A DNA stretch of 64,000 nt, taken from Pseudomonadota bacterium (GTDB lineage: Bacteria > Desulfobacterota > Binatia > UBA1149). Shown in pieces: positions 2,031 through 30,455 of this stretch (positions within the stretch are counted from its first letter, which is position 1; the number at the start of each line of letters is the position of its first letter). Location: positions 174 to 64,173 of the forward strand of contig JACNKC010000057.1 in NCBI GenBank assembly GCA_014382245.1, given 5' to 3'. The notes beneath the pieces are model-generated. The model was given only the letters and a program-made list of their open reading frames with translations. It made no database searches and was not told the DNA's origin. Both the position numbers and the translations under genes were made by a program.

Positions 2031-4550
2031 CTAGGAATGCGCCTCCCTGGCTATGACTTCGTCCTGCAGTTCGCGGCCTATGCTGGTGAAGTAGGCGTTG
2101 TAGCCGGTGACGCGTACCAGCAGGTGGCGGTACTCGCCGGGGTTGAGCTGGGCGTCGCGCAGGGTGTCGGTGTCGATCACGTTGACCTGCAGGGCAGTGC
2201 CCCCGTTTTCGCAGTAGCCACGAAGAAACCCCTTGAACTTTTCGCGGTGCTCTGCGTCGCGCAGCAGCGATGGACTGAAGCTCATGGTATGGCTGGCGCC
2301 GTTGGGCAACGAGTTGCGGTAGTCCTGCCAATCTCCGTCGCTGCCCCGTCCACCCAGCGCCTGGCCAACCGAGTTGACGTTGGCCGTGGGGCCACTGGTA
2401 TCGGCGCCGTTGGACGGGCAAATGGCGTTGGACAGGAACCTGCCCCGCGGTCTTCCGTCGGCGCTCGCCGCCATGACGTAGCCGCCGTCCACCCAGTAGT
2501 TCCAGCTGAGCATGCCGGGACGAAAGCGCCGGCCGGTGCTGACCGTGCTGTGCTTCCAGGTTTCATCGGTCCACAGGTCCATCACGGCGCAGGCCATGGC
2601 GTCGGCCTCCTGTTGGTCGCGGCCGTACTTGGGCGCGCGCCAGCGGGCCCAGGCCTGCAGGGTCTCGTGCCCGTCCCAGTTGTCGCGCAGGGCCGCGGTC
2701 AGCTCCTCCATCGAGCACAGACCGCGGTCGTAGACCAGGTACTTTATCGCGCACAGCGAGTCCACGGTGGTGGCGAAGGTTACGCCCTCGAGCGTGGTAA
2801 GGTTGATCTCGGCGCCGCCGCGGGTGACGTCGGTGGCCGTTTCGGCGCAGCCGCCCACGAGGCAGGACAAGTAGGGCGTGGGGCTGAAGCGGGCGCGCAG
2901 GCTCTCGGTACGTTCGTAGAGGTCAACGCAACGTTGCACGATGAACTCGTTCTGCCTGCTGTAGGCCGCCCAGAAGTCTTCCCAGCGATCGAACTTCCCG
3001 GCGTCACCCGTGCGCGGGCCGTCTCGGCTGATTTCGCGGGACTCGCCGGTCACGGCGTCCATCGCGGGGGCGAGATCCTCGCCGCCTGTAAGCGCGAGTT
3101 CAACGGCCTTGAGCAGGTTGAGGTTACTGTCAACGGTTCCTGAACGGTCGTTGCCCACCATGGTGTTTTCCAGGCAGCCAACCGGCGCGTACTCGTGGAC
3201 GTTGTCCTCGTTTACGAGGTGCTGGTAGCCGGCCTCGGCGGCTTCGCGCATCATACCGGCCATGGATCTCTCGTCGAAGTTGAGCAGGAAGGGCGATCCG
3301 TGGCTGCGCGAGATCATGTCGACCACGGTGTCGAGCAGGCGGTTGGGAGAACCGCGGTGCAGCCGTACACTCGGCTTGGGCTCCAGTATGGGGCTCATCT
3401 CGTCGATGACCTCGAGGATGGCGTAGGTCAGGTCGTTGGTCGTGTCGACGCCCTCGGCTCCAATGCCCGAAAGCGTTATGAGCTGGCCGAAGCCGGAGGT
3501 GATTCCCTGGTTGCCGCCGATTTTTATCATGGCGTCGTAAGCCGTGTTGGCGTGTACCCAGAAGCAGCGCAGGATTTCTTTGCCGAACTCGCGATCCATT
3601 CCGTTCTCGATCGAGCGGCGCCAGCAGGGGTAGAGGTACTGGTCTACGCGGCCGAAGCTCAGGCCGGGGCCGGGGTAGTTTTCGTCGCTCATCACCAGCA
3701 TGTGGGTGAGCCACAGGGATTGTACTGCCTCCCAGAAGTTACGCGCGGGAAGCCAGGGCACGCGTTCCAGGTTGCGGGCCATGTTCTCGAGCTCCGCCCG
3801 GCGAGCCGGGTCGGCTTCGTCGCGGGCCTCGTCGCGGCAGCACCCGGCGTATTTTCCGGCCAATTCCCCGGGCATGAGAGCAGCAGTCATCATGGCGCGC
3901 AGTTGCGAGCCGGGTTGGCCGTTTTTAGCAGCGTGGTCGAGTGCGTCGTAGCGTTGTTCGAGGTCGCGGTGGATGGCTCCCCAGCCATGCTCGATCACCC
4001 GTGGGTAGTCGGGTAGCAAATGGCCGGAGGTAGCACCCGTGTTGCCGTAGCCGTGCTCGTGGAAATCCTTGATCGCGGCTCTCGTGCCGCGCGGGCCGTT
4101 GACCTCGGCATCGCGTCGACGGGCTTCCTCGCGGTTCCAGCAGCGCGAGGCGAGCAGGTTGAAGCGGGCCCCGGCTATGAGATCACCGGGCAGTATTTCC
4201 CGCGGCAACCTGTTGACCATTATTTCGCGGATCAGCCACGCGCGGCGCTCGGCGAGCCCCCGTTGCCAGAAGTCATCGGGCAGATCGACCCTGCGCGCAG
4301 CCTGCAGGGTGGAAGAGCGGAACGGTTGAAAGAACGCGTAGGTCTCCGGGACGATGTAGTAGGTGGTCTCGTCGTAGACCACGTCCCAGTCGGTACCGGT
4401 TGTCCAGCAACTGAACTCGTTGTTCCACTCGCGGTCTACGCCGCGAAAGTAGTAGTCGCGCAGCCACTGTGCGCGTGGGGACAACGCGCGGGGCGCGGGT
4501 ACAGCGGGTTGCTGTTCGCGGTGATTCGTTGCGTGTGCTGATCCTGCCAT
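2031..4550 (-). CDS. glycyl radical enzyme, PFL2/glycerol-dehydratase-like (eliminase-type) family, substrate unknown
   Basis: 839 aa. C-terminal glycine radical motif RVTGYNAYF. Catalytic Cys loop VGCLENT with Glu at +2, as in GRE dehydratases/lyases/decarboxylases (CutC, HypD, IslA, glycerol dehydratase, HPD) and unlike the PFL CC motif. Adjacent activase. Confidence 0.85.
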   Translation of the reverse strand: MAGSAHATNHREQQPAVPAPRALSPRAQWLRDYYFRGVDREWNNEFSCWTTGTDWDVVYDETTYYIVPETYAFFQPFRSSTLQAARRVDLPDDFWQRGLAERRAWLIREIMVNRLPREILPGDLIAGARFNLLASRCWNREEARRRDAEVNGPRGTRAAIKDFHEHGYGNTGATSGHLLPDYPRVIEHGWGAIHRDLEQRYDALDHAAKNGQPGSQLRAMMTAALMPGELAGKYAGCCRDEARDEADPARRAELENMARNLERVPWLPARNFWEAVQSLWLTHMLVMSDENYPGPGLSFGRVDQYLYPCWRRSIENGMDREFGKEILRCFWVHANTAYDAMIKIGGNQGITSGFGQLITLSGIGAEGVDTTNDLTYAILEVIDEMSPILEPKPSVRLHRGSPNRLLDTVVDMISRSHGSPFLLNFDERSMAGMMREAAEAGYQHLVNEDNVHEYAPVGCLENTMVGNDRSGTVDSNLNLLKAVELALTGGEDLAPAMDAVTGESREISRDGPRTGDAGKFDRWEDFWAAYSRQNEFIVQRCVDLYERTESLRARFSPTPYLSCLVGGCAETATDVTRGGAEINLTTLEGVTFATTVDSLCAIKYLVYDRGLCSMEELTAALRDNWDGHETLQAWARWRAPKYGRDQQEADAMACAVMDLWTDETWKHSTVSTGRRFRPGMLSWNYWVDGGYVMAASADGRPRGRFLSNAICPSNGADTSGPTANVNSVGQALGGRGSDGDWQDYRNSLPNGASHTMSFSPSLLRDAEHREKFKGFLRGYCENGGTALQVNVIDTDTLRDAQLNPGEYRHLLVRVTGYNAYFTSIGRELQDEVIAREAHS

Positions 4551-20981: not shown

Positions 20982-22244
20982 TCAGTCCTCACCCGCGGCC
21001 TCGGCGTCAAATTCAATGTACATCTCTTTTACGCCCGAGATGAAATTGGACACCAGCTGACGGTGCTCGCCCAGCAGGCGGGGGTTGCGCAGGCGCGGTA
21101 TCATTTCTTCGAACATAACGGTCAGCTCCTTGCGCGCCAGGTGTGAGCCCAGGCAGAAGTGCTGGCCTATGCCGAAGGTGCGGTGCTCGCTTTTGAGCTC
21201 GGGCATACGCTGCGCGCGGGTCACGTCGAAGGCTTCCGAATCGGGTCCGAACACCGACTGCTCGTGGTTGGCCGAAGGGTAATACATGCGCAGGATGTCG
21301 CCTTTTTTTACCTGCTTGTCGCCCACGGTGACGTCGCGGGTGGCGGTGCGCTGCATGTAGTTGAAGGACGGATGATAGCGCAGGATTTCTTCTACCGCGC
21401 CTGGTATCAGCGAGGGGTCGTCTACCAGCAGTTGCAGTTGCTCGGGGTGCTCGATGAGCAGGCGCATGCCCTGGCTGGTGGCCGTTCTCGTGGTCTCGAT
21501 TCCGCCGGCGATCAGTATCAGGAAGAAGGCGCAAAACTCGAATTCGTCGAGGGCCTCGCCTTCGACCACGCCGTTGAGCAGGGCGTCGAGCACGGTGCCC
21601 TCCCTGGGATTGGTCTTGTGCTCGGCGGCCAGGCCCATGGCGATTTCGAACAGGCGCGCTGCAGCCAACTGGCCGTCTTCCGAGCTCACGTTGAGCTCGG
21701 GGTCGTCCATGCCGATCATCACGTCCACCAGGTCCGAGAATTCCTTGCGTTTTTCTGAGGGCATTTCCATGAGTGCGCAGATGACGAACAAGGGCATCTC
21801 GGCAGCCACCTCCGAGGCGAACTCGCAGCGTCCCCTCGCCGCGATCTTGTCGATGATCTCGCGGGCGCGTTCTCGCATCATGGGCTCGAGCGCATCGACA
21901 GCGCGCAAGGTGAAGGCGTTGCGTACAACCTTGCGGTACTGGTTGTGGTCGGGGGGATCCATGTTGATGATCAGCCGCCGCATGATTTCCTGCTCTGCCG
22001 GGTCGTCGCCGGCGGGATGCGGGTGCGCCATGTTTATCGACGACGAGAACAGGCCGGGGTTCTTGGAGACAAAATCTATCTCCTCTCGCCTGGTGAGCGC
22101 CCAGAACTCGCCCGAGTGCTCGGTCGCATCCTGCCTTGAGACCGGGCACTGGCTCCTGAGCGTGGCCAGGTCTTCAAACGGTATGCCGTGGCTCATGCGC
22201 TCGGGGTCCATGAGGTTGAACTGGTAGGGGCATTCGTCGTTCAT
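20982..22244 (-). CDS. cytochrome P450
   Basis: Heme-binding loop FGIGQHFCLGSHLARKEL (FxxGxxxCxG). ExxR motif (EILRYHP). Confidence 0.9.
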   Translation of the reverse strand: MNDECPYQFNLMDPERMSHGIPFEDLATLRSQCPVSRQDATEHSGEFWALTRREEIDFVSKNPGLFSSSINMAHPHPAGDDPAEQEIMRRLIINMDPPDHNQYRKVVRNAFTLRAVDALEPMMRERAREIIDKIAARGRCEFASEVAAEMPLFVICALMEMPSEKRKEFSDLVDVMIGMDDPELNVSSEDGQLAAARLFEIAMGLAAEHKTNPREGTVLDALLNGVVEGEALDEFEFCAFFLILIAGGIETTRTATSQGMRLLIEHPEQLQLLVDDPSLIPGAVEEILRYHPSFNYMQRTATRDVTVGDKQVKKGDILRMYYPSANHEQSVFGPDSEAFDVTRAQRMPELKSEHRTFGIGQHFCLGSHLARKELTVMFEEMIPRLRNPRLLGEHRQLVSNFISGVKEMYIEFDAEAAGED

Positions 22245-22324
22245 GTTATCTCCAGGGGGGTATCAGACGCCTCCCCCTTTTAGCGGGGCGGGGTTGGCTT
22301 GGCCAGCCCCGCGGTGCAGGGTGG

Positions 22325-23569
22325 TTGGCCATGGCTGACCTGCTTTTCACCAACGCGACCGTGCTCGACCTGGTCGCGGGCGAGCCGCGGCCAGGAATGA
22401 CCGTGCGCTGCGAGGGCGAACGCATAGTCGAGCTGACTGAGAGGGGCGCCCGGGCTGCCGGCGGCGACCTGCGCAGTATCGACTGCCGCGGTCGCACGCT
22501 GATGCCCGGTCTCATCGACGCCCACGTGCACGCGTCCATCACCACGCTCGACCTTTCCTCCATGCAGAACAAGCCGGCCACCCTGGTGGCTCACGAGGCC
22601 GCTGCGGTGTTGGGCGGTATGCTTGACCGTGGTTTTACCACCGTGCGCGACGCCGGCGGCAGCGACTGGGGCCTGGCCCAGGCCGTGGACAAGGGGCTGG
22701 TAAGGGGCCCGAGGATTTTTTACTCGGGCAGGGTGCTCAGCCAGACCGGCGGCCATGGCGATTTCCGTCCACGCACCGATGACGTGCCCGTCTGCGCGTG
22801 CAGCATTTATTCCGGCGGTTTTTCGCACGTGGCAGATGGCGTAACGGCGGTGAGAAAAGCGGCGCGCGAGGAGCTGCGGCGTGGCGCTACGCAGGTCAAG
22901 ATCATGGCCTCTGGCGGTGTGGCTTCGCCTACCGACCCGGTGTGGAACGTCCAGTACTCGCCCGAGGAAATGCGCGCCATAGTCGAGGAGGCCCGGGGCT
23001 GGCGCACTTATGCCATGGCCCACGCCTACACGCCCGAGGCTGTGACCCGGGCCGTTCAAGCCGGCGTGCGCACCATTGAGCACGGCAACCTGATAGACGC
23101 TGACACGGCGAGGTTGATGGCCGAACACGGTGCCTTCCTGGTTCCCACGCTGGTCATCTACCACGCGGCTGCCGAGACGGGTAGGCAGTTCGGTTTTCCC
23201 GAGACGAGTATGCGTAAGCTCGACGACGTGCTGCAAGCCGGTACGCGTTCATTGGAGCTCGCCCGCGAAGCTGGTGTAGAGATGGGCTTTGGCACCGACC
23301 TGCTGGGCGAAGTACACGACCAGCAGCTGCGCGAGTTCAGCTTGCGCGCCGAGGTGCTGCCGCCGATCGAAGTGCTGAGGTCGGCCACCACGGTGAACGC
23401 CCGTATACTCGACCGCGAGGGCGAGCTGGGAGTAGTGGCCGAGGGGGCGCTGGCTGACTTGCTGCTGGTGGACGGCAACCCGCTCGATGACCTGTCGTTG
23501 TTCGCCGACCCGTCCCGCGTACCGCTGGTAGTAAAGGCAGGGCAGGTGGCCGTGGAGAGGGACGCCTGA
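22325..23569 (+). CDS. amidohydrolase family metal-dependent hydrolase
   Basis: LMPGLIDAHVHA metal-binding motif and the rest of the TIM-barrel amidohydrolase signature. Divergent from the P450 gene. Confidence 0.8.
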   Translation: MAMADLLFTNATVLDLVAGEPRPGMTVRCEGERIVELTERGARAAGGDLRSIDCRGRTLMPGLIDAHVHASITTLDLSSMQNKPATLVAHEAAAVLGGMLDRGFTTVRDAGGSDWGLAQAVDKGLVRGPRIFYSGRVLSQTGGHGDFRPRTDDVPVCACSIYSGGFSHVADGVTAVRKAAREELRRGATQVKIMASGGVASPTDPVWNVQYSPEEMRAIVEEARGWRTYAMAHAYTPEAVTRAVQAGVRTIEHGNLIDADTARLMAEHGAFLVPTLVIYHAAAETGRQFGFPETSMRKLDDVLQAGTRSLELAREAGVEMGFGTDLLGEVHDQQLREFSLRAEVLPPIEVLRSATTVNARILDREGELGVVAEGALADLLLVDGNPLDDLSLFADPSRVPLVVKAGQVAVERDA

Positions 23570-24669
23570 TGGGCACCGCGCCGAGGGGCTGCCGGCTGAC
23601 GACGGAAGGCGGTCTACCACTGCTGGTCGAGCCCGAACTGCCGGGGGCTGGCGAATTGGGCAAAAGCGAAGCCGCCGGTGGCGGCGTAGCTACGGCCGTG
23701 GGTCTGGCCGCTTGGCTCAGCGAGAACAGCGACTGGGTGCAGGCGCGCCTGCTGGAGCACGGCGCGCTGTTATTCCGTGGCTTTCGGGTTACCGCCGCAC
23801 CCGACTTTGAGTCCGTGGCGCGCGCGTTAGAGCCCGAACTTGGCACCGAGTATCTCGGCACTTCGCCACGCGAGCCGCTTCAGGGTAGCCGCTACGTGTT
23901 TTCGGCAAGTGAGCTGCCCTCGCATTATCCCATCGCCCAGCACGCCGAGATGAGCTTCGTGGCCAGGCCACCGCGACGCTTGTTTTTTTGTTGCTTCCAG
24001 GAGCCCGCCGATGGCAGTGGTGAAACCCCGGTCACGGATTTGCGCAGGGTCTGGAGTGAGCTCGACGCTGATCTCAAGCGGCGGCTGCTGGCCGGCGGCC
24101 TGCGCATAGTGCGCAACTACTGCGGCCCGGCGGCGAAATCGCGCAGCCCGTTCCAACTCAAGGGCTGGCACGAGATGTTTGGCACCACCGATCGAGGGGC
24201 GGTGGAGACAAAGTGCCGCCTGGAGGGCTTCGAAGTGAGCTGGCTCGAGGGCGACGCGCTGCGCCTGGTCCACACCCAGTCGCTTGTGCGCGACCATTCC
24301 GACACCGGCGAAACCGCGTGGCACAATCACCTGCAGGTCTTTCATCTATCCTCGGCCGCCGGTGAATACCGACGTATTTTCGCCTTGCGACCCACGTTGC
24401 GTAACTTTGCGGTCTGGCAGTTGGCGCGTTTGCTTACCTTGCTGCAGCGCCTGACACGCAGCAGTGAAGAGCAGGCTATGCACTGCACACGTCTCGATGG
24501 TGGTGAGATTGCGACCGCCGACGTGGAGGCGGTGCGCGACGCCATCTGGCGCAACATGGTGGTGACGCCGTGGCGACTTGGCGACGTCCTGGTGATCGAC
24601 AACCAGTCTACGGCGCACGGTAGGTTGCCTTACCGAGGCCGTCGCGAAATCGCCGTGGCCTGGGCTTGA
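23569..24669 (+). CDS. TauD/TfdA-family (SyrP-like, clavaminate-synthase-fold) dioxygenase
   Basis: WVQARLLEHGALLFRGF...HYPIAQHAEMSF pattern resembling SyrP/TauD-family proteins. TGATG overlap with the upstream amidohydrolase gene. Confidence 0.55.
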   Translation: MGTAPRGCRLTTEGGLPLLVEPELPGAGELGKSEAAGGGVATAVGLAAWLSENSDWVQARLLEHGALLFRGFRVTAAPDFESVARALEPELGTEYLGTSPREPLQGSRYVFSASELPSHYPIAQHAEMSFVARPPRRLFFCCFQEPADGSGETPVTDLRRVWSELDADLKRRLLAGGLRIVRNYCGPAAKSRSPFQLKGWHEMFGTTDRGAVETKCRLEGFEVSWLEGDALRLVHTQSLVRDHSDTGETAWHNHLQVFHLSSAAGEYRRIFALRPTLRNFAVWQLARLLTLLQRLTRSSEEQAMHCTRLDGGEIATADVEAVRDAIWRNMVVTPWRLGDVLVIDNQSTAHGRLPYRGRREIAVAWA

Positions 24670-24675
24670 CAGCAG

Positions 24676-25872
24676 TCAGGCGCCCTGGGCCGGCAGGGGC
24701 GTGTAACCGGCCTCGCGTATCGCTTCGCGGACCGTTTGCTCGTTGACATCACCCCATACGCTGGCACCGCCCGGCTCGAGCACGACGACCGCCGATTTGA
24801 CGCCCGGTGTCGCCAGCAGCGCTGTCTCCAGCCGCGTGCGGCAGTTGTTGCAGGTCATGCCTTCGACGGCCAGCTCGAGGTCGGCCGTCCTGCGCGAGGT
24901 CATGGCCCGGGTAAGCGCCGTGCGCAGTTCGCCCAGGGCAAAGCACGCGAGCGTGGCCGTGAGCAACAACGCTGAGCCCAGCTCCCACCAGGCCGGTCCG
25001 TTGCCGTGGTGGGGCAAGGCGCCGGTTCCCACGGGAAGCAGCGAGTCGAACAGCAGGCCGGCTGCAATGGATCCGACAACGATGGTACTCAGGTACACGC
25101 CCAGCGTGCGCCCACCCAGTGCGCGGTAGACGGCACCGATGGTGGCCACGTTGGTAGCCGGGCCAGCCATGAGAAACACCAGCGCGCTACCGGCCGGCAG
25201 GCCACCGGCAACCAGGGCCGCGGCTATGGGCACCGAGCCGGTCGCGCACACGTACAGCGGAACCGACACGGCCAGCACCGCCAGCATAGAGGCCATGCTG
25301 CCCAGCCCGGCCAGTGAGCCCGGCGGTACCCAGGTCGAGATTGCGGCCGACGCCAGCACGCCCACCGCGATCCAGCGCCATATGGTGCGAAGGATACTGA
25401 TCGAGTGTGACGCCATTCCCCGCAGGCTGCGCTCGACCTGTTCGTCGGGCGACTGTTGTTCGTCGCCTTGTACGGCTCCCGGCGAAACCGAGCCCGCCAG
25501 GTAACCGCCGGCTATGCCCGTGACCGCGGCCGCCGCTATTTTGAACAGGGCAAAGGGCCAGCCGAGGAACGACGCGCTCACCAGGGCCGAGTCAACACCG
25601 GTCTGCGGCGTGCTTATCAGGAATCCAACCGTGGCACCGCGATCGGCGCCGTCGCGACGTAAGCCCAGCGCGGCGGGGATGACCCCGCAGGAACAAAGCG
25701 GCAGCGGCACGCCCAGCGCGACGGCCTTGAGAACGCCCAGCCGCCCGCCCAGCTCGCGGTGTACGAAGCCGGCCGGGAGCGCGACGTGCAGCAGGCCGGC
25801 CACGACGGCGCCCAGCAGCAGCCAGGGTGCCAGCGAGAGCATCACGCCCCAGGCCTCGACCAGGAAAACCAT
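24676..25872 (-). CDS. DUF318-type permease fused to a C-terminal heavy-metal-associated (HMA) domain
   Basis: PLCSCGVIPAALG motif characteristic of DUF318 permeases. C-terminal GMTCNNCRTRLE...VKSAVVVLE HMA fold with a CxxC metal site. TGATG coupling to the upstream repressor gene. Confidence 0.7.
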   Translation of the reverse strand: MVFLVEAWGVMLSLAPWLLLGAVVAGLLHVALPAGFVHRELGGRLGVLKAVALGVPLPLCSCGVIPAALGLRRDGADRGATVGFLISTPQTGVDSALVSASFLGWPFALFKIAAAAVTGIAGGYLAGSVSPGAVQGDEQQSPDEQVERSLRGMASHSISILRTIWRWIAVGVLASAAISTWVPPGSLAGLGSMASMLAVLAVSVPLYVCATGSVPIAAALVAGGLPAGSALVFLMAGPATNVATIGAVYRALGGRTLGVYLSTIVVGSIAAGLLFDSLLPVGTGALPHHGNGPAWWELGSALLLTATLACFALGELRTALTRAMTSRRTADLELAVEGMTCNNCRTRLETALLATPGVKSAVVVLEPGGASVWGDVNEQTVREAIREAGYTPLPAQGA

Positions 25873-26159
25873 CAGCGCGCCCCTATGCGGCTGTAGCGCG
25901 AAAACACTTCCATCAGCTCGTCGACCTTGGCCGCGCGGTCGTCGGAACTGCCGCTTTCAAACGCGTGGCTGACGCAGGTCTCGATGTGGTTCGACAGTAT
26001 CATCTCGCCTGCGCGCCCGAGCGCGCCCTGGGCGGCCGCGACCTGGGTGAGCACGTCCACGCAGTAGGTGTCCTGCTCCACCATGCGCCGCAGGGCCGCC
26101 ACCTGCCCCTCGGCCCGGTTGAGCCGGGTCAGAACCTTCTTACGGGTCTCATCGTCCAT
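25872..26159 (-). CDS. CsoR/RcnR/FrmR-family metal-sensing transcriptional repressor (CsoR-like C-H-C fingerprint)
   Basis: DUF156-type helical protein. Putative sensing residues C33, H58 and C62 (95-aa numbering) match the x-C-H-C Cu(I)-CsoR pattern. I prefer the ATG at 26159 so that the operator palindrome is upstream; the ORF track starts at 26222. Confidence 0.7.
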   Translation of the reverse strand: MDDETRKKVLTRLNRAEGQVAALRRMVEQDTYCVDVLTQVAAAQGALGRAGEMILSNHIETCVSHAFESGSSDDRAAKVDELMEVFSRYSRIGAR

Positions 26160-26166
26160 GCCGTGA

Positions 26167-26187
26167 ATATACCCCCAGGGGGTATAT
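26167..26187. promoter_or_regulatory. perfect inverted repeat ATATACCCCC-A-GGGGGTATAT, candidate CsoR-family operator
   Basis: 10-1-10 perfect palindrome with a G/C tract flanked by AT-rich arms. Lies 8 nt upstream of the repressor start codon, in the divergent intergenic region. Confidence 0.7.
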
Positions 26188-26251
26188 AGGTCAAGGGCTT
26201 GTTTCAGTGCTCGCATTGGCACGTGTCTCCCCTTTAGGTAACTAAGACCCC

Positions 26252-27829
26252 GTGGGCTGGGACAAGGAAACCGAGGGGATACGCGCGCGCCGCGAGGCCG
26301 CGCTGGCCATGGGTGGCGCCGAGGCCGTTGACCGTCAGCACGGCAAGGGCCGCCTGACGGTGCGCGAGCGTATTGACGTGCTGGTCGACGAGGGGAGCTT
26401 TGCCGAGCAGGGCCCGATGGCCGGTCACTCCGAGATCGACGACGAGGGACGCCTGGTCGAATTCACGCCGGGCAACTACGTGCTGGGCATGGCGCGCCTG
26501 GACGGTCGGCCCTGCGTGGTAGGGGGTGAGGATTTCACGCTCAAGGGCGGATCGCCCACGCCGGCCGGCCTGCGCAAGAGCGTCTACGCCGAGCAACTGG
26601 CCGTGCAGTACCGGGTGCCCCTGGTGCGCCTGCTCGAGGGTGGCGGCGGCAGCGTGGCCGGAACACGTGGCGGCAAGAACGCGGGCAAGGGTGGCGGCGG
26701 AGCCCACGCCGGCGATCCGGTTTACGTTACGCCCAGGTTCATGTCCTTTGCCGAGGCCATGGCGGCGGTGCCCGTGGTGTCGGTGGCACTGGGGCCGGTG
26801 GCGGGTTTCCCGGCTGCGCGCCTGGTGTCATCTCATTTCTCGATAATGGTGCGCGACACCTCGCAGGTGCTCATCGCCGGGCCGGCCGTCGTGGAGCGCG
26901 CGCTGGGCGAGAAGAAAACCAAGGAAGAACTCGGCGGCGCGGCCGTGCACATGCACAGCGGCGTGGTGGACAACCGGGCCGACGACGAAGCGGGTGCGCT
27001 GGCGCAGGTAAGGCGCTTTCTTTCCTACCTGCCCACCAACGTCTGGGAGCCGGCGCCCCGGGTGGCCCGCGACGACGATCCCGCCCGCGCCGAAAGCGAA
27101 CTCAACTCGATCATCCCGCGCGACCGTCGCAAGGCCTTCGACATCAGGCGGGTGTTGGAACTGGTATTTGACGCGGGCAGTTTCTTCGAGATGTCGGCCG
27201 GCTACGGGCCTTCGCAGGTCACCGGCCTGGCGCGGCTGGACGGACAGGCGGTGGGCGTGTGGGCCAACGACTGCCGCTTCTGGGCCGGCGCGATGGACGC
27301 CGACGGGGCGCAGAAGGCCAGGCGTTTCATTGACCTCTGTGACAGCTTTCACCTGCCTATTATCAGCCTGGTCGACGAACCCGGTTTCATGATTGGTACC
27401 GGGTCAGAGGCGGCCGGCACCATACGCTACGGCGCGCAGACCATATTTGCGGCCAACCAGTCATCGGTACCCTGGGCGGCGGTTCACCTGCGCAAGGCCT
27501 TCGGCGTGGCGGCCGCGGCCCATTTCGGCCCGGAGTCGTACGTGCTGACGTGGCCCTCGGCCGAAAGCGGTGCGCTGCCCGTCGAGGGTGGCGTGGCGGT
27601 GGCCTTCGGACGCGAGATAGCCGCCGCTGATGATCCCGACGCCCTTCGCAGCGAGCTGGAGGAACAGTTCGCCGCCTCGCGCACGCCGTTTCCCCGCGCC
27701 GAGTCTTTCGGAGTACACGATCTCATCGAGCCCGCCGAAACCCGCAGTCGCCTGTGCCGCTGGGTGGAGTGGATACAGCCACGCCTGGCCACGCTGGTGG
27801 GGCCCACCAGCCATTCGGTTCGACCCTAG
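26252..27829 (+). CDS. acyl-CoA carboxylase carboxyltransferase subunit (propionyl-CoA carboxylase beta chain-like)
   Basis: N-terminus EAALAMGGAEAVDRQHGKGRLTVRERIDVLVD typical of PccB/AccD5. Two carboxyltransferase domains. GTG start. Confidence 0.85.
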   Translation: MGWDKETEGIRARREAALAMGGAEAVDRQHGKGRLTVRERIDVLVDEGSFAEQGPMAGHSEIDDEGRLVEFTPGNYVLGMARLDGRPCVVGGEDFTLKGGSPTPAGLRKSVYAEQLAVQYRVPLVRLLEGGGGSVAGTRGGKNAGKGGGGAHAGDPVYVTPRFMSFAEAMAAVPVVSVALGPVAGFPAARLVSSHFSIMVRDTSQVLIAGPAVVERALGEKKTKEELGGAAVHMHSGVVDNRADDEAGALAQVRRFLSYLPTNVWEPAPRVARDDDPARAESELNSIIPRDRRKAFDIRRVLELVFDAGSFFEMSAGYGPSQVTGLARLDGQAVGVWANDCRFWAGAMDADGAQKARRFIDLCDSFHLPIISLVDEPGFMIGTGSEAAGTIRYGAQTIFAANQSSVPWAAVHLRKAFGVAAAAHFGPESYVLTWPSAESGALPVEGGVAVAFGREIAAADDPDALRSELEEQFAASRTPFPRAESFGVHDLIEPAETRSRLCRWVEWIQPRLATLVGPTSHSVRP

Positions 27830-28854
27830 GGAATCAGCGCCAGGCGGATGGGCGAGTTTCGGCGAGAGTCGAGGTCGGCGAAGGCCGAGGCGGCGTCCTC
27901 GAGCGGGTAGCGTTCGGTTATCGATCGCGAAAGATCCAGCGTGCCCGCCGCCGCCATCTCTACCACGCGGTCAAGTTCGGTACGGGTGTAGCCCATCGAG
28001 CCGGTGATCGAGATCTCCTTGCCTATGAACGAGACCAGCGGTGGCAGGCGAGGGCGGTCGATGCCCACGCCGCCGAGCACCACGCGGCCGCTTCTTGCCA
28101 CGCAACGCAAGGCCAGCGAAACGGTGGCTTCGCCGCCTACGAATTCGATCACGCAGGCCGGTCCCTCGCCGCCCGCTGCCCTGCGAACCTGCCGATGGGC
28201 GTCGTCGGCGCGACCGTCCACGCAGACATTGGCACCGGCAGCGCGCGCTTTTTCCAGCGCGCCTTCGCTGGCGTCGATCGCTACCACGGTGCCTGCTCCC
28301 AGTATGCGAGCGAGCAACAAAACGTGGTAGCCAACGCCGCCGCAGCCTATTACGGCCAGGCTCTCGCCAGGCTGCAAGGCGCCGCGCGTAGCAACGGCGT
28401 GGTAGGCAGTGGCCACCGCGTCGGCCAGTATGGCCCCGTGTTCAAAGGGGAGGGTGTCGGGCAGCGGCAGCGTGCAGGAGGCCGAAGCGACTACGCGCTG
28501 AGCAAAAGTACCGTCGCGTGCCATGCCGAAAATCTGCGCGCTCGCGCACAGGCCCAGGTGCCCGTCAAGGCAGGGACCGCACTCGCCGCAGGTCTCGCTG
28601 GGCAACAACAACACGCGGTCGCCCACCGTGCGGTCGGTAACCCCGTCGCCGACCGCGGACACGACGCCGGCACCCTCGTGTCCCATGACTACCGGAAGGC
28701 CAGGCAGCGGTAAACGGCCGTGCACGGCGTGCAGGTCGGTGCCACACACGCCGGCGGCTTTTATATCTACGAGCACTTCGCCCGGGCCAGCGACGGGCTC
28801 GTCTACTTCTTCTACTTCGACCCTGTTTTCCGGGTGCAGTCTTACCGCTTTCAT
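27826..28854 (-). CDS. zinc-dependent alcohol dehydrogenase (MDR family)
   Basis: GHEGAGVV zinc site, CGxCxxC structural zinc motif, GCGGVGYHVLLLARILGAG NAD-binding motif. Confidence 0.85.
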   Translation of the reverse strand: MKAVRLHPENRVEVEEVDEPVAGPGEVLVDIKAAGVCGTDLHAVHGRLPLPGLPVVMGHEGAGVVSAVGDGVTDRTVGDRVLLLPSETCGECGPCLDGHLGLCASAQIFGMARDGTFAQRVVASASCTLPLPDTLPFEHGAILADAVATAYHAVATRGALQPGESLAVIGCGGVGYHVLLLARILGAGTVVAIDASEGALEKARAAGANVCVDGRADDAHRQVRRAAGGEGPACVIEFVGGEATVSLALRCVARSGRVVLGGVGIDRPRLPPLVSFIGKEISITGSMGYTRTELDRVVEMAAAGTLDLSRSITERYPLEDAASAFADLDSRRNSPIRLALIP

Positions 28855-28877
28855 GTTCCTGTCTCCGCTGCCTGTTT

Positions 28878-30455
28878 TTACTCGGCGCCGTGTACGCCGC
28901 CTTCGGCGTTCTTCCAGTGGGGCTCGCGCAGGGCACGGCGCATGATCTTGCCGACCGGTGTCCTGGGAAGTTCGTCCATGATGTCGATTGCCTTGGGTAC
29001 CTTGAATCGCGCGAGACGCTCCTTGCAGAAGGCCAGAAGCTCTGCCTCGCTGGCGCTGGCCCCGGGCCTCAGCGAAACGGCAGCACGTATGGCCTCACCC
29101 CACTTGGGGTCCGGTATCGCGAAGACCGCGCAGTCGGCTACCGCGGGGTGCTCGGCGAGCTCACTCTCTACTTCGGCGGGGTATACGTTGAAGCCACCGG
29201 TTATGATCTTGTCTTCCTTGCGGTCGTCCAGGTAAAGGTAGCCACGTTGGTCGGTGTGTCCGAGGTCACCGGTGTAAAGCCAGCCGTTGCGGAGGCGGGC
29301 CTCGTCGAGTTCCGGGCGTTTCCAGAAACCCGGTGTCGTCCACGGCGCACTTACGCAGATCTCGCCGGTTTCGCCCACTTCCGCTTCCGCACCCGACTCG
29401 TCAACCACGCGCACCTGCGCGAAGGCCGGCCGCTCGCGTCCCACCGACCTGAGCCACTCGCCTTCCTGTTCGAGTGCCGCCGCGTGCTCGTCGGGGCCCA
29501 TGAAGGTGTTGAGTGCGTAGGCTTCGGTTTGTCCGAAGCCGGTGTAGAGCACGGGCCCCACGCGTTCGAAGGCGCGCTTGACCAGCGCCGGTGCCGCCGG
29601 CGCAGCGGCGTATACTATCGCCCGCAGGCTCGAAAGGTCGGCCTGCTCGGCGCCCGGGTGGTCGAGCAGCATGCGCAGCAGGGTGGGAATGATGAGCACC
29701 ATCGTTACCCGGTGTTTCTCGATGGCGGCTATCATCTCTTCGAGGTCGGGGGTGGGCAGGATGACCAGGGTAGCGCCACCCATCCAGCAGGTGTCCATGG
29801 CGCGGCCGCCGAAGTGGCTCAGGGCCAGCTGTCCGAGCAAGCGGTCGTCGGGGTTGACGTCGAAGCTGGTCTGCCAGGAACTCATGGCCGCGGCCACGCT
29901 TCCGTAACTGTGGGTCACTCCCTTGGGGTGGCCGGTGGTGCCCGAGGTATACAGTATCTGCGCGAGCGACGTTGCCGGGCGGTCCAGCGAGGGACGTTCG
30001 AAGGTTTCCTTGTTGGCCAGGGCCGACAGGTCGTGATCGGCCGCAGTGCTGGCGCCCGCGGTCGCATCGCCGGCCACCGATAGAACCGACGCTCCCCCGG
30101 CGGCCGCCCGTGCCCGCTCCACCCCCCTGGCCGACAGGCCGACCACGAAACTGGCCTCGGAGTCGTTGACCATGAAAGAGTGCTCGCTTTCGGTGAGCGC
30201 GCCCAGCAGCGGGACGATAGCTCCACCTGCGCGCGCGATGGCGATCACCGTCCGCACGTACTCTATCGTGTTCTCCTGCACCAGTGCCACGCGCTGGCCG
30301 GGTTCGAGCCCCAGGCCGATCAGTGCGCGCGAAAGTTGGGTGGCGCGTTCGTCGAGCTCGCGGTAGTCCACGCGGCGGTCGCCGTCGATGACGGCGGTTT
30401 GCTCGGGCCAGCTTCGCGCGGCGCGGGCTGGGTAATGGGAGTAGGGCGCTATCAC
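28878..30455 (-). CDS. AMP-dependent acyl-CoA synthetase/ligase
   Basis: LYTSGTTGHPKGV AMP-binding motif. GTG start overlapping the upstream stop (GTGA). Confidence 0.85.
   Translation of the reverse strand: MIAPYSHYPARAARSWPEQTAVIDGDRRVDYRELDERATQLSRALIGLGLEPGQRVALVQENTIEYVRTVIAIARAGGAIVPLLGALTESEHSFMVNDSEASFVVGLSARGVERARAAAGGASVLSVAGDATAGASTAADHDLSALANKETFERPSLDRPATSLAQILYTSGTTGHPKGVTHSYGSVAAAMSSWQTSFDVNPDDRLLGQLALSHFGGRAMDTCWMGGATLVILPTPDLEEMIAAIEKHRVTMVLIIPTLLRMLLDHPGAEQADLSSLRAIVYAAAPAAPALVKRAFERVGPVLYTGFGQTEAYALNTFMGPDEHAAALEQEGEWLRSVGRERPAFAQVRVVDESGAEAEVGETGEICVSAPWTTPGFWKRPELDEARLRNGWLYTGDLGHTDQRGYLYLDDRKEDKIITGGFNVYPAEVESELAEHPAVADCAVFAIPDPKWGEAIRAAVSLRPGASASEAELLAFCKERLARFKVPKAIDIMDELPRTPVGKIMRRALREPHWKNAEGGVHGAE

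Follow-up and report, generated by a model that had tools for sequence, protein, structure and literature searches.

CsoR-type repressors are selective for Cu(I) in vivo, with Ag(I) acting as a mimic, and a tyrosine and a glutamate in the second shell of their metal site have an allosteric role. Two related sensors, FrmR and RcnR, require an N-terminal proline or histidine. The DNA-contact motif of CsoR has been defined as RLxR plus a glutamine, and the TAC-N9-GTA rule for CsoR operators has been established by experiment, the operator consensus in S. lividans being ATATACCCCTNAGGGGTATAT (PMC3902906).

Permeases of the SO_0444 family have been linked to metal stress in several bacteria. For example, SO_0444 itself is needed for growth under CuCl2 or ZnSO4 stress, as demonstrated with complementation, and has a ZntR-like regulator of the MerR type as its partner (PMC3219624). 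Similarly, a homolog plays an important part in Shewanella loihica when zinc is in excess, and a Nitratiruptor member of the family is strongly induced by copper and cadmium. The signature metal motif of the family is CSC, sometimes replaced by USC (Sec-Ser-Cys) (bioRxiv 10.1101/2022.07.06.499078). The evidence on family function is from fitness and transcriptome data, and our literature search found no transport assay. In addition, the putative permease Rv2963 of M. tuberculosis is directly repressed by the CsoR paralog RicR via a palindromic motif, and its disruption produced no clear copper phenotype (PMC3944814). The same search found no link between CsoR and DUF318, or between Rv2963 and COG0701, YraQ or ArsP.

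Here, a csoR gene and a gene for a permease fused to an HMA domain were analysed within a 64-kb window (the whole stretch of DNA under study), together with related loci from other genomes. It is probable that the two genes form a self-contained, autoregulated copper-detoxification unit, in which a secondary Cu(I) exporter is placed under CsoR.

The csoR gene, its operator and its promoter

The repressor gene occupies positions 25872–26159 of the minus strand, stop codon included, and encodes a putative Cu(I) sensor of 95 amino acids. Its product matches PF02583, an all-helical domain, over residues 6–87 (E = 2.6e-29; 101.9 bits against a cut-off of 22.8), and its closest PDB structures are the CsoRs 4m1p, 4adz and 2hh7. 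Cys33 (26061–26063), His58 (25986–25988) and Cys62 (25974–25976) align with the ligands of all three structures, giving the x-Cys-His-Cys pattern in the W-X-Y-Z fingerprint, and their spacing of 25 and 4 residues is identical to that of C36/H61/C65 in the M. tuberculosis protein. Second-shell residues are represented by Tyr32, directly before Cys33, and by Glu81, which aligns with Glu81 of M. tuberculosis CsoR (where the pair is Tyr35 and Glu81), and the DNA-contact residues by RLNR (residues 12–15, helix 1) and Gln39 within LTQV (helix 2). The ligand, RLxR and Gln residues are also conserved in the csoR genes of related loci across phyla, as are the counterparts of Tyr32 and Glu81 in most relatives. 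The FrmR and RcnR models match the repressor too, more weakly yet significantly, and its N-terminus (MDDETRKK) contains no His or Pro ligand. These residues identify the repressor as a CsoR-type x-C-H-C sensor and as neither an RcnR nor an FrmR. The Cys-His-Cys assignment of an earlier sequence-only reading was therefore confirmed by PDB alignment, and residue mapping gave the CsoR fingerprint, not the RcnR or FrmR type that would have counted against that reading.

The start codon is the sole correction to the features described by that reading. A GTG well upstream opens the mechanical open reading frame (25872–26222), but translation in fact begins with the ATG at 26159, since the PDB CsoRs align from residues 2–8 of the 95-residue version, since a GTG start at 26222 would enclose both the palindromic operator and the promoter in coding sequence, and since neither the N-terminal extension nor the sequence 5' of the −35 hexamer is conserved in the relative L002; the GTG was rejected.

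Directly upstream of this ATG, at a distance of 7 nt, lies the perfect palindrome claimed by the sequence-only reading (ATATACCCCCAGGGGGTATAT; 26167–26187, no strand), which consists of two 10-nt arms of 100% complementarity separated by 1 nt. It contains TAC-CCCCTGGGG-GTA, in keeping with the TAC-N9-GTA rule, and agrees with the published S. lividans consensus (PMC3902906). The palindrome is unique in the window, even allowing three mismatches, and dinucleotide-preserving shuffles gave a match in none of 100 controls. Twelve inverted repeats were listed in 500 bp, all imperfect except this one, and its AT-rich arms are conspicuous against DNA of roughly 68% G+C.

A consensus scan placed the palindrome within a sigma-70-like promoter on the minus strand, formed by the −35 hexamer TTGACC (26189–26194) and the −10 hexamer TATATT (26166–26171) at a spacing of 17 nt (10 of 12 consensus matches, versus 0.2 expected in shuffles). 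The palindrome occupies the spacer between the hexamers and overlaps the −10. TTGAC(C/A) is kept in the relatives L001 and L002, with divergent sequence farther 5', and both share the arrangement of −10 and ATG. Because the −10 ends only 7 nt before the ATG, the csoR mRNA is probably leaderless or nearly so; no purine-rich Shine-Dalgarno sequence was found in the 7-nt spacer (TCACGGC) between the two.

Conservation was assessed in 80 genomes with a permease-HMA gene, with the operator box scanned for over 653 kb. In 23 of these genomes, from several phyla, csoR lies directly 5' of the permease-HMA gene, and the box precedes csoR in 22 of the 23 loci, the remaining locus being truncated where its contig stops; no box occurs at any of the 57 loci that lack csoR. 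Overall, 34 of the 35 boxes found are at csoR promoters. The 17-nt consensus from 34 boxes of related loci, ATACCCCC-N-GGGGGTAT, is identical to the palindrome in the window, and across loci the arms of the box are fixed while the central base varies. Together with the S. lividans consensus and the TAC-N9-GTA core, this distribution supports the operator type of the CsoR/RcnR family named by the sequence-only reading, and on sequence evidence the palindrome is the CsoR operator. Two irregularities among the relatives were set aside. A second box in L012, 1.6 kb 5' of the permease gene, lies within an amidohydrolase reading frame and is probably a chance occurrence, and an apparent recombination in L001 (a csoR 58% identical beside a permease 96% identical) is explained by consecutive N positions that mask part of the stored sequence. 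Regulators at the 57 loci without csoR are heterogeneous, with only a divergent DtxR-family gene recurring (seven acidobacterial loci). An AraC regulator lies beside a related permease-HMA gene on plasmid pAT2, and most related permease-HMA genes have no regulator nearby.

The permease and its HMA domain

The TGATG coupling claimed for the two genes is present on the minus strand, where the csoR stop codon (TGA, 25872–25874) and the permease ATG (25870–25872) share base 25872. A Shine-Dalgarno-like AGGGG (25880–25884, minus strand) falls within the 3'-terminal part of csoR, with 7 nt between it and the start codon of the permease, and this element together with the overlap suggests that permease translation is coupled to that of csoR. 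The operon ends with the permease stop codon (24676–24678, minus strand), and a convergent TauD-family gene ends at 24669. Downstream of the related loci no third operon gene is conserved, and there is no conserved neighbourhood, the genes 5' and 3' varying from locus to locus. In the window, the neighbours are metabolic (P450, amidohydrolase, TauD, carboxyltransferase, ADH and acyl-CoA synthetase), no compositional anomaly indicative of horizontal transfer was seen, and neither the operon nor its neighbourhood contains P1B-ATPase or RND/MFP/OMF genes.

The permease gene (24676–25872, minus strand) encodes 398 amino acids with matches to PF03773 and PF00403. Its membrane domain (residues 1–325; 24898–25872, minus strand) is of the PF03773/ArsP_1 family (also known as DUF318 or UPF0718) and SO_0444-like, and the PF03773 match is full-length (residues 12–275, profile positions 14–292 of 294; E = 9e-39, 133.8 bits). 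The Cys-Ser-Cys motif of the SO_0444 family is present as PLC60-S-C62-G, invariant in 121 sequences (Cys60-Ser-Cys62 at 25687–25695), and Cys209 (25246–25248), His29, His156 and the motifs STPQTG and AGPATN are likewise invariant. An AF2 model gave a high-confidence fold of two repeats, each composed of a hairpin and a broken helix, with CSC or YVC at the hairpin tips and the helix breaks at STPQTG or AGPATN.

Against NCBIfam NF033936 (SO_0444 family Cu/Zn efflux transporter), an equivalog model of length 351, the permease scores 281.6 bits in two stretches (E = 8.9e-84), just below the curated cut-off of 300 bits, whereas 14 of 51 close homologs of the same architecture attain about 300 bits; with the SaoE model the score is far lower, at 120.8 bits. 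A RefSeq fusion protein with the same architecture and 37% identity is already named SO_0444 family, and the fusion is present in all of the best 120 of more than 7,800 database matches. By sequence, the permease lies on the margin of SO_0444, a family already named (TC 2.A.119). As SO_0444 responds to zinc as well as copper and has a ZntR-like MerR partner, the permease core is not copper-specific. The permease is predicted to be, most likely, a secondary copper exporter that is derepressed by Cu(I) and autoregulated.

The C-terminal HMA domain with a CxxC site, also noted by the sequence-only reading, is found at residues 332–393 (24694–24879, minus strand) and matches PF00403 over residues 334–391 (E = 1.5e-12). 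It has the ferredoxin-like beta-alpha-beta-beta-alpha-beta fold with a GMxCxxC loop, and its metal site is GMTC341NNC344 (24841–24852), in which C341 and C344 are invariant among relatives. The PDB matches of the domain are CopZ and the metal-binding domains of CopA/ATP7B, and its top NCBIfam scores are to CopZ-type models. The domain is predicted to be cytoplasmic because an Arg-rich linker follows the last transmembrane helix and because of the distribution of K/R residues, 16 of 17 of which lie on one side when both hairpins are treated as non-crossing. Assessed by the A, P and N domains that define an ATPase of the P1B type, the permease belongs to neither the P1B-ATPases nor the CusCBA systems; it is unrelated to both, as the sequence-only reading had stated, and only its HMA part resembles CopA/ATP7B.

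Proposed mechanism and rival explanations

At low copper, CsoR would sit on the palindrome ATATACCCCC-N-GGGGGTATAT and keep its own promoter off, possibly as two tetramers per site by analogy with S. lividans. As the palindrome fills the spacer between the −35 and −10 hexamers and overlaps the −10, RNA polymerase would be excluded. When cytoplasmic Cu(I) rises, it would occupy a trigonal site made up of Cys33, His58 and Cys62' where the two subunits of the dimer meet, and a network involving Tyr32 and Glu81 would relay the change so that CsoR leaves the DNA. The csoR-permease transcript, probably leaderless, would then be made, with the TGATG overlap coupling permease translation to that of csoR. 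The permease would act as a secondary exporter of the ArsP/SO_0444 family, not driven by ATP, for which Cu(I) would be the substrate as well as the inducer. Its tethered HMA domain may capture Cu(I) in the cytoplasm on the CxxC motif, in the manner of CopZ or the N-terminal domains of CopA, and pass it to, or gate its access to, a thiolate site in the middle of the membrane. From the predicted fold, this site would comprise Cys60-Ser-Cys62 and Cys209, placed respectively at the tips of one helical hairpin and of its inverted-repeat counterpart, and the metal would finally be released to the periplasm.

With the same regulatory design, the permease could instead have another thiophilic species as its physiological substrate, whether Ag(I), Zn(II), Cd(II), Hg(II) or an organometal or organoarsenical, with copper at most a co-inducer; the protection against zinc afforded by SO_0444 and its S. 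loihica homolog, the induction of the Nitratiruptor member by cadmium besides copper, the connection of ArsP, with which the family was founded, and of the related SaoE with the export of organoarsenicals or organometals, the silver induction of a Haloferax COG0701 permease and the occurrence of GMTCxxC HMA motifs in MerP and MerA would all fit. However, the sensor has the full Cu(I) ligand set of CsoR plus its allosteric residues, conserved in linked csoR genes across phyla, such sensors are selective for Cu(I) in vivo with Ag(I) as a mimic, and the HMA domain scores highest with CopZ-type models, which makes a different substrate unlikely. Transport in the opposite direction, with the permease importing copper or redistributing it for cuproenzyme maturation, appears highly improbable: induction by high Cu(I) would be counterproductive for an importer, loss of SO_0444 causes a copper and zinc sensitivity that is complemented, and the predicted cytoplasmic HMA domain sits where the donor domain of an exporter would, although direction in this permease family is itself inferred. 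Export is favoured because a gene repressed by CsoR is turned on by excess Cu(I); of the 'efflux or uptake' left open by the sequence-only reading, efflux is therefore clearly preferred to uptake.

The sensor might also respond to a non-metal signal, either a persulfide, as CstR does, or an aldehyde, as FrmR does, with the permease exporting a sulfur or organic compound. CstR and FrmR both belong to the CsoR family, the FrmR and RcnR models give the weaker but significant matches described above, and in vitro, CsoR proteins of the dithiol type are able to react with persulfides (PMC8643695). This explanation is scarcely credible given an operator of CsoR type and a partner permease with both a metal-binding HMA domain and the CSC metal motif. 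Moreover, the repressor has the His58 ligand, whereas CstR has no His ligand to our knowledge, and MDDETRKK does not supply the N-terminal Pro or His needed by FrmR and RcnR. Finally, inverted repeats are common in G/C-rich genomes, and the palindrome could in principle have arisen by chance or be a structural element such as a hairpin or terminator, with no protein binding to it. The probability of this is close to nil, since the shuffled controls and AT-rich arms speak against it and since a box with fixed arms and a variable central base, inside a promoter, is conserved across phyla only with csoR; the contrast between 22 of 23 csoR loci and 0 of 57 loci without csoR effectively refutes it.

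Wider distribution and comparison with known systems

The favoured reading, a Cu(I) exporter under CsoR control, makes the gene pair a real and tidy but essentially ordinary assembly of known kinds of parts. The sequence-only reading had called the unit unusual, which was overstated, as the SO_0444 family is named and has genetic evidence, and the HMA fusion is widespread and automatically annotated. The main practical value is in annotation: the two genes can confidently be called a copper efflux module regulated by csoR, while relatives in the poorly known UBP10/Binatia-like lineage are labelled 'permease' or 'hypothetical protein'. In addition, recurrence of the module across several phyla provides independent regulatory evidence for Cu(I) handling by the HMA-fused branch of the SO_0444 family. 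A more tentative suggestion, to which we give somewhat less than even weight, is that HMA-fused SO_0444-type permeases constitute a widespread class of secondary Cu(I) exporters with an elevator-like fold, a three-cysteine site and a tethered chaperone, which replace CopZ plus CopA without ATP where they are paired with csoR. As part of this joint reading, there may be thousands of them, spread over Myxococcota, Planctomycetota, Acidobacteriota, Binatia and other phyla, and their fold may be akin to that of ArsB, AbgT and DASS transporters and not to the TOG superfamily of TCDB. With one repressor, one 21-bp site and one transporter, the system is compact, and could be useful for studying copper export by a membrane protein that is not an ATPase, and the contribution of a tethered metallochaperone domain to a secondary transporter.

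Among described permeases, SO_0444 shares with the present one the PF03773 core, the invariant CSC and an extra C-terminal transmembrane helix, but is associated with a ZntR-like MerR activator instead of a CsoR repressor, and the C-terminal HMA domain lies outside the NF033936 family model, judging from the model length. ArsP of Campylobacter jejuni (methylarsenite efflux) and SaoE are of the same Pfam and TCDB family and have in common a vicinal cysteine pair of the CSC type as the presumed soft metal or metalloid site. In contrast, they occur in connection with arsenic or organometals and, to the extent covered here, have neither an HMA fusion nor CsoR control. Rv2963, a putative member of PF03773 and putative homolog of the window permease, offers the closest precedent in the literature for control of a permease by a repressor of the CsoR family; unlike the csoR-linked fusion described here, it lies apart from its regulator gene ricR, and no HMA domain has been reported for it.

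The repressor resembles the CsoRs of M. tuberculosis (2HH7), S. lividans (4ADZ), Geobacillus (4M1P) and B. subtilis in its Pfam family and autoregulation, in its Cys-His-Cys ligands and their spacing, in the Tyr/Glu second shell and in RLxR plus Gln. Similarly, its operator shares with type-2 CsoR operators the TAC-N9-GTA dyad, the C/G tracts and the AT-rich flanks, and is nearly identical to the 21-nt Streptomyces consensus. In CopZ/CopA, which are often CsoR-controlled like the permease here, a cytoplasmic GMTCxxC ferredoxin-like domain likewise serves an exporter with transmembrane cysteines. The differences from known CsoR operons are in the host, an uncultured lineage of UBP10/Binatia-like MAGs, in the operator, a perfect palindrome over the −10 of a probably leaderless promoter, and in the partner of csoR, which is a secondary permease with a fused HMA domain in place of the CopZ/CopA P1B-ATPase pair.

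The csoR-permease operon and its repressor

On the minus strand of the window, the 95-aa repressor gene csoR (ATG at 26159, TGA at 25874-25872; Pfam PF02583 'metal-sensitive transcriptional repressor', E 2.6e-29) is followed by the gene for a 398-aa permease (25872..24676), with base 25872 common to the csoR stop and the permease ATG in a TGATG overlap, and an AGGGG motif inside csoR, 7 nt before the permease ATG. The permease combines a PF03773 membrane domain (ArsP_1, formerly DUF318; residues 12-275) with a C-terminal PF00403 HMA domain (residues 334-391) bearing the CxxC site GMTC341NNC344 (Pfam). The coupling, the architecture and the other features described in the sequence-only reading were all confirmed, save for its repressor start at 26222, a GTG that opens the mechanical ORF and was rejected in favour of the ATG at 26159.

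Judged from alignments, the repressor is a genuine CsoR. Among solved structures, those closest to it belong to Cu(I)-sensing CsoRs (Geobacillus 4m1p, S. lividans 4adz and M. tuberculosis 2hh7), and FrmR structures rank last among the matches. Cys33, His58 and Cys62 align with the copper ligands of those CsoRs (M. tuberculosis C36/H61/C65, with identical spacings of 25 and 4) and Tyr32 and Glu81 with the second-shell Tyr35 and Glu81, bearing out the proposed Cys-His-Cys spacing of CsoR rather than RcnR or FrmR type. RcnR, InrS and FrmR use an N-terminal His or Pro, and as the N-terminus here (MDDETRKK) contains neither, the W-X-Y-Z fingerprint maps to x-C-H-C, not to the FrmR or RcnR type. The repressor also contains RLxR (R12-L-N-R15) and the helix-2 Gln (Q39), both of which were required for operator binding in mutagenesis of S. 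lividans CsoR (PMC3902906).

A candidate operator conserved across csoR loci

The csoR ATG is preceded, at a distance of 7 nt, by the palindrome ATATACCCCCAGGGGGTATAT (26167-26187) of the sequence-only reading, with perfect 10-nt arms and one central base. Allowing up to three mismatches gives no other match in the 64-kb window, which has no second CsoR box, and 0/100 dinucleotide-preserving shuffles match it. A consensus scan placed one sigma-70-like promoter in the region (versus 0.2 expected by chance), with the -35 TTGACC (26194-26189) and the -10 TATATT (26171-26166) on the minus strand, separated by a 17-nt spacer that the palindrome fills while also overlapping the -10. Because the -10 ends 7 nt from the ATG and the intervening TCACGGC lacks a Shine-Dalgarno, the csoR mRNA is probably leaderless. 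Two close relatives with permease identities of 96% and 95% (MAGs labelled UBP10 UBA1149 and Candidatus Binatia) keep the -35, both arms of the palindrome, the -10 and its spacing from the ATG, and the central base varies (T, C, G) across these and the window; at the related locus L002, all sequence before the -35 is unrelated. At L001, the closest relative (a UBA1149 contig), the tblastn identity of csoR (58%) is misleadingly low owing to a masked N run (3717-3848) in the gene.

The window site, TAC-CCCCTGGGG-GTA, matches the experimentally defined Streptomyces CsoR operator consensus, ATATACCCCTNAGGGGTATAT, and has the same ATA/TAT extensions; CsoR operators have in common a 5'-TAC-N9-GTA-3' dyad flanking G-tracts (PMC3902906). 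Among 80 genomic loci encoding permease relatives of 48-96% identity (653 kb in total; Myxococcota, Planctomycetota, Acidobacteriota, Binatia-like and others), a csoR homolog ends immediately upstream of the permease gene in 23. The loose pattern TACC[CT]-N3-9-[AG]GGTA occurred 35 times in these 653 kb, 34 of them just upstream of csoR, and the consensus derived from the loci, ATACCCCC-N-GGGGGTAT, in which any central base is allowed, is identical to the window site. All linked csoR genes encode C-H-C, and nearly all the RLxR, Gln, Tyr and Glu. Together with the Streptomyces match, the presence of a box before csoR in 22/23 csoR loci (the sequence of the 23rd ends 43 nt upstream) versus 0/57 loci without csoR provides strong comparative evidence that the palindrome is the operator of CsoR, as proposed. 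Two tandem boxes, 22-35 bp apart and with the permease start 300-440 nt downstream, are found at 13/22 csoR promoters (L008, L009, L011, L014, L022, L027, L034, L038, L040, L041, L052, L058 and others), with a single box in the window and its closest relatives; in the lineages that have them, the tandem boxes may point to repression that is cooperative or graded.

Permease family, fold and genomic context

Profile matches show that the permease is no orphan but lies on the margin of a Cu/Zn efflux family that already has a name and is partly characterised. It scored 281.6 bits (E 8.9e-84) against NCBIfam NF033936, 'SO_0444 family Cu/Zn efflux transporter', a little short of the curated cut-off of 300 bits, with the SaoE model far behind (120.8 bits) and CopZ-type models matching the HMA part; about 300 bits was attained by 14/51 close homologs with the same architecture. 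A protein of Aureibacter tunicatorum pAT2, WP_309942522.1 (37% identical, PF03773 plus C-terminal HMA), already carries the SO_0444 family name in RefSeq; a search of 72,556 plasmids (E <= 1e-20) gave no other match. Its gene on this Bacteroidota megaplasmid (L081; NZ_AP025307.1 211324-212586) lies directly downstream of an AraC-family regulator, not one of the CsoR, MerR or ArsR metal-sensor type. Both domains were present in 120/120 best of >7,800 matches (E <= 1e-10), many labelled 'YraQ (UPF0718 family)/copper chaperone CopZ' by JGI. The HMA fusion is thus plentiful, and automatic annotation already covers it; the interpretation in the sequence-only reading is supported, but not its claim of unusualness.

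The evidence for function in this family is genetic, and no transport assay for any member was found in the literature. Shewanella oneidensis needs SO_0444 to grow in CuCl2 or ZnSO4, as shown with complementation, and the gene is predicted to be under a ZntR-like regulator (PMC3219624); a Shewanella loihica homolog is important under zinc stress, and in Nitratiruptor a family member ranks with the genes that Cu and Cd induce most strongly (PMC10092412). In TCDB, the family is classed alongside ArsP (2.A.119).

In alignments of 51-121 homologs, invariant permease residues include His29, PLC60-S-C62-G, STPQTG (87-92), His156, Y-V-C209-A-T-G-S-V-P, AGPATN (236-241) and HMA Cys341 and Cys344. A confident AlphaFold2 model on the alignment (pLDDT 88, pTM 0.84) predicts two repeats, each a helix-turn-helix with a Cys-bearing tip (46-73; 192-222) then a broken helix (78-103; 227-252), followed by a ninth helix (295-325) and a beta-alpha-beta-beta-alpha-beta HMA domain, which points to ArsB/AbgT/DASS-like hairpin transporters. 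Lys111 (25540-25542), within a transmembrane helix, is invariant and a possible coupling residue; His288-His289 (25007-25012), in a predicted periplasmic loop before the last helix, are 61% and 45% conserved, often HxH in homologs, and possible release-site residues.

The neighbourhood (20982-30455) is purely metabolic, comprising a convergent TauD-family dioxygenase, a divergent carboxyltransferase, an amidohydrolase, a P450, a Zn alcohol dehydrogenase and an acyl-CoA synthetase, with no other metal-homeostasis genes in the 64-kb window and no compositional anomaly at the module. The TauD-family stop (24669) and permease stop (24676-24678) are 6 nt apart, and as a scan found no intrinsic terminator between these convergent genes, transcription of each may run on into the other. 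Since flanking genes differ among genomes and no third gene is conserved across related loci, the csoR-box-permease unit behaves as a portable two-gene cassette. In seven Acidobacteriota loci without csoR (Thermoanaerobaculia, Holophagales, 'Multivorans'; L059, L060, L071, L074, L077, L078, L079), a divergently transcribed DtxR-family regulator (347-358 aa, PF02742 plus FeoA-like domain; ~2819-3895, minus strand, locus coordinates) starts ~130 nt upstream of the permease-HMA gene, a hint that transporters of this family may there be controlled by another metal, Fe or Mn.

Metal, direction of transport and known systems

Excess Cu(I) lifts repression by CsoR, so the permease would be made when copper is high, which fits an exporter rather than an importer; of the efflux or uptake originally suggested, efflux is thus favoured. 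The HMA domain would capture cytoplasmic Cu(I) and may deliver it to, or gate, a Cys60/Cys62/Cys209 membrane thiolate site, from which Cu(I) would be released outside; as the permease lacks an ATPase, an ion gradient would be the driving force. The sensor has the full copper ligand set, which is kept at every occurrence of the module and favours Cu(I), with Ag(I) a likely mimic. Two caveats are that the permease core is not copper-specific, also handling zinc in Shewanella, and that relatives are paired with other regulators (DtxR-family in the seven acidobacterial loci, AraC on pAT2).

The only published putative permease under CsoR-family control is, to our knowledge, Rv2963, which presumably belongs to PF03773. 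For this member of the RicR regulon of M. tuberculosis, a robust copper phenotype was not seen (PMC3944814). Repressor and operator are both of the textbook CsoR kind; a literature search returned no paper describing csoR paired with this permease branch, and the recurrence of that pairing across several little-studied phyla is new, though minor.
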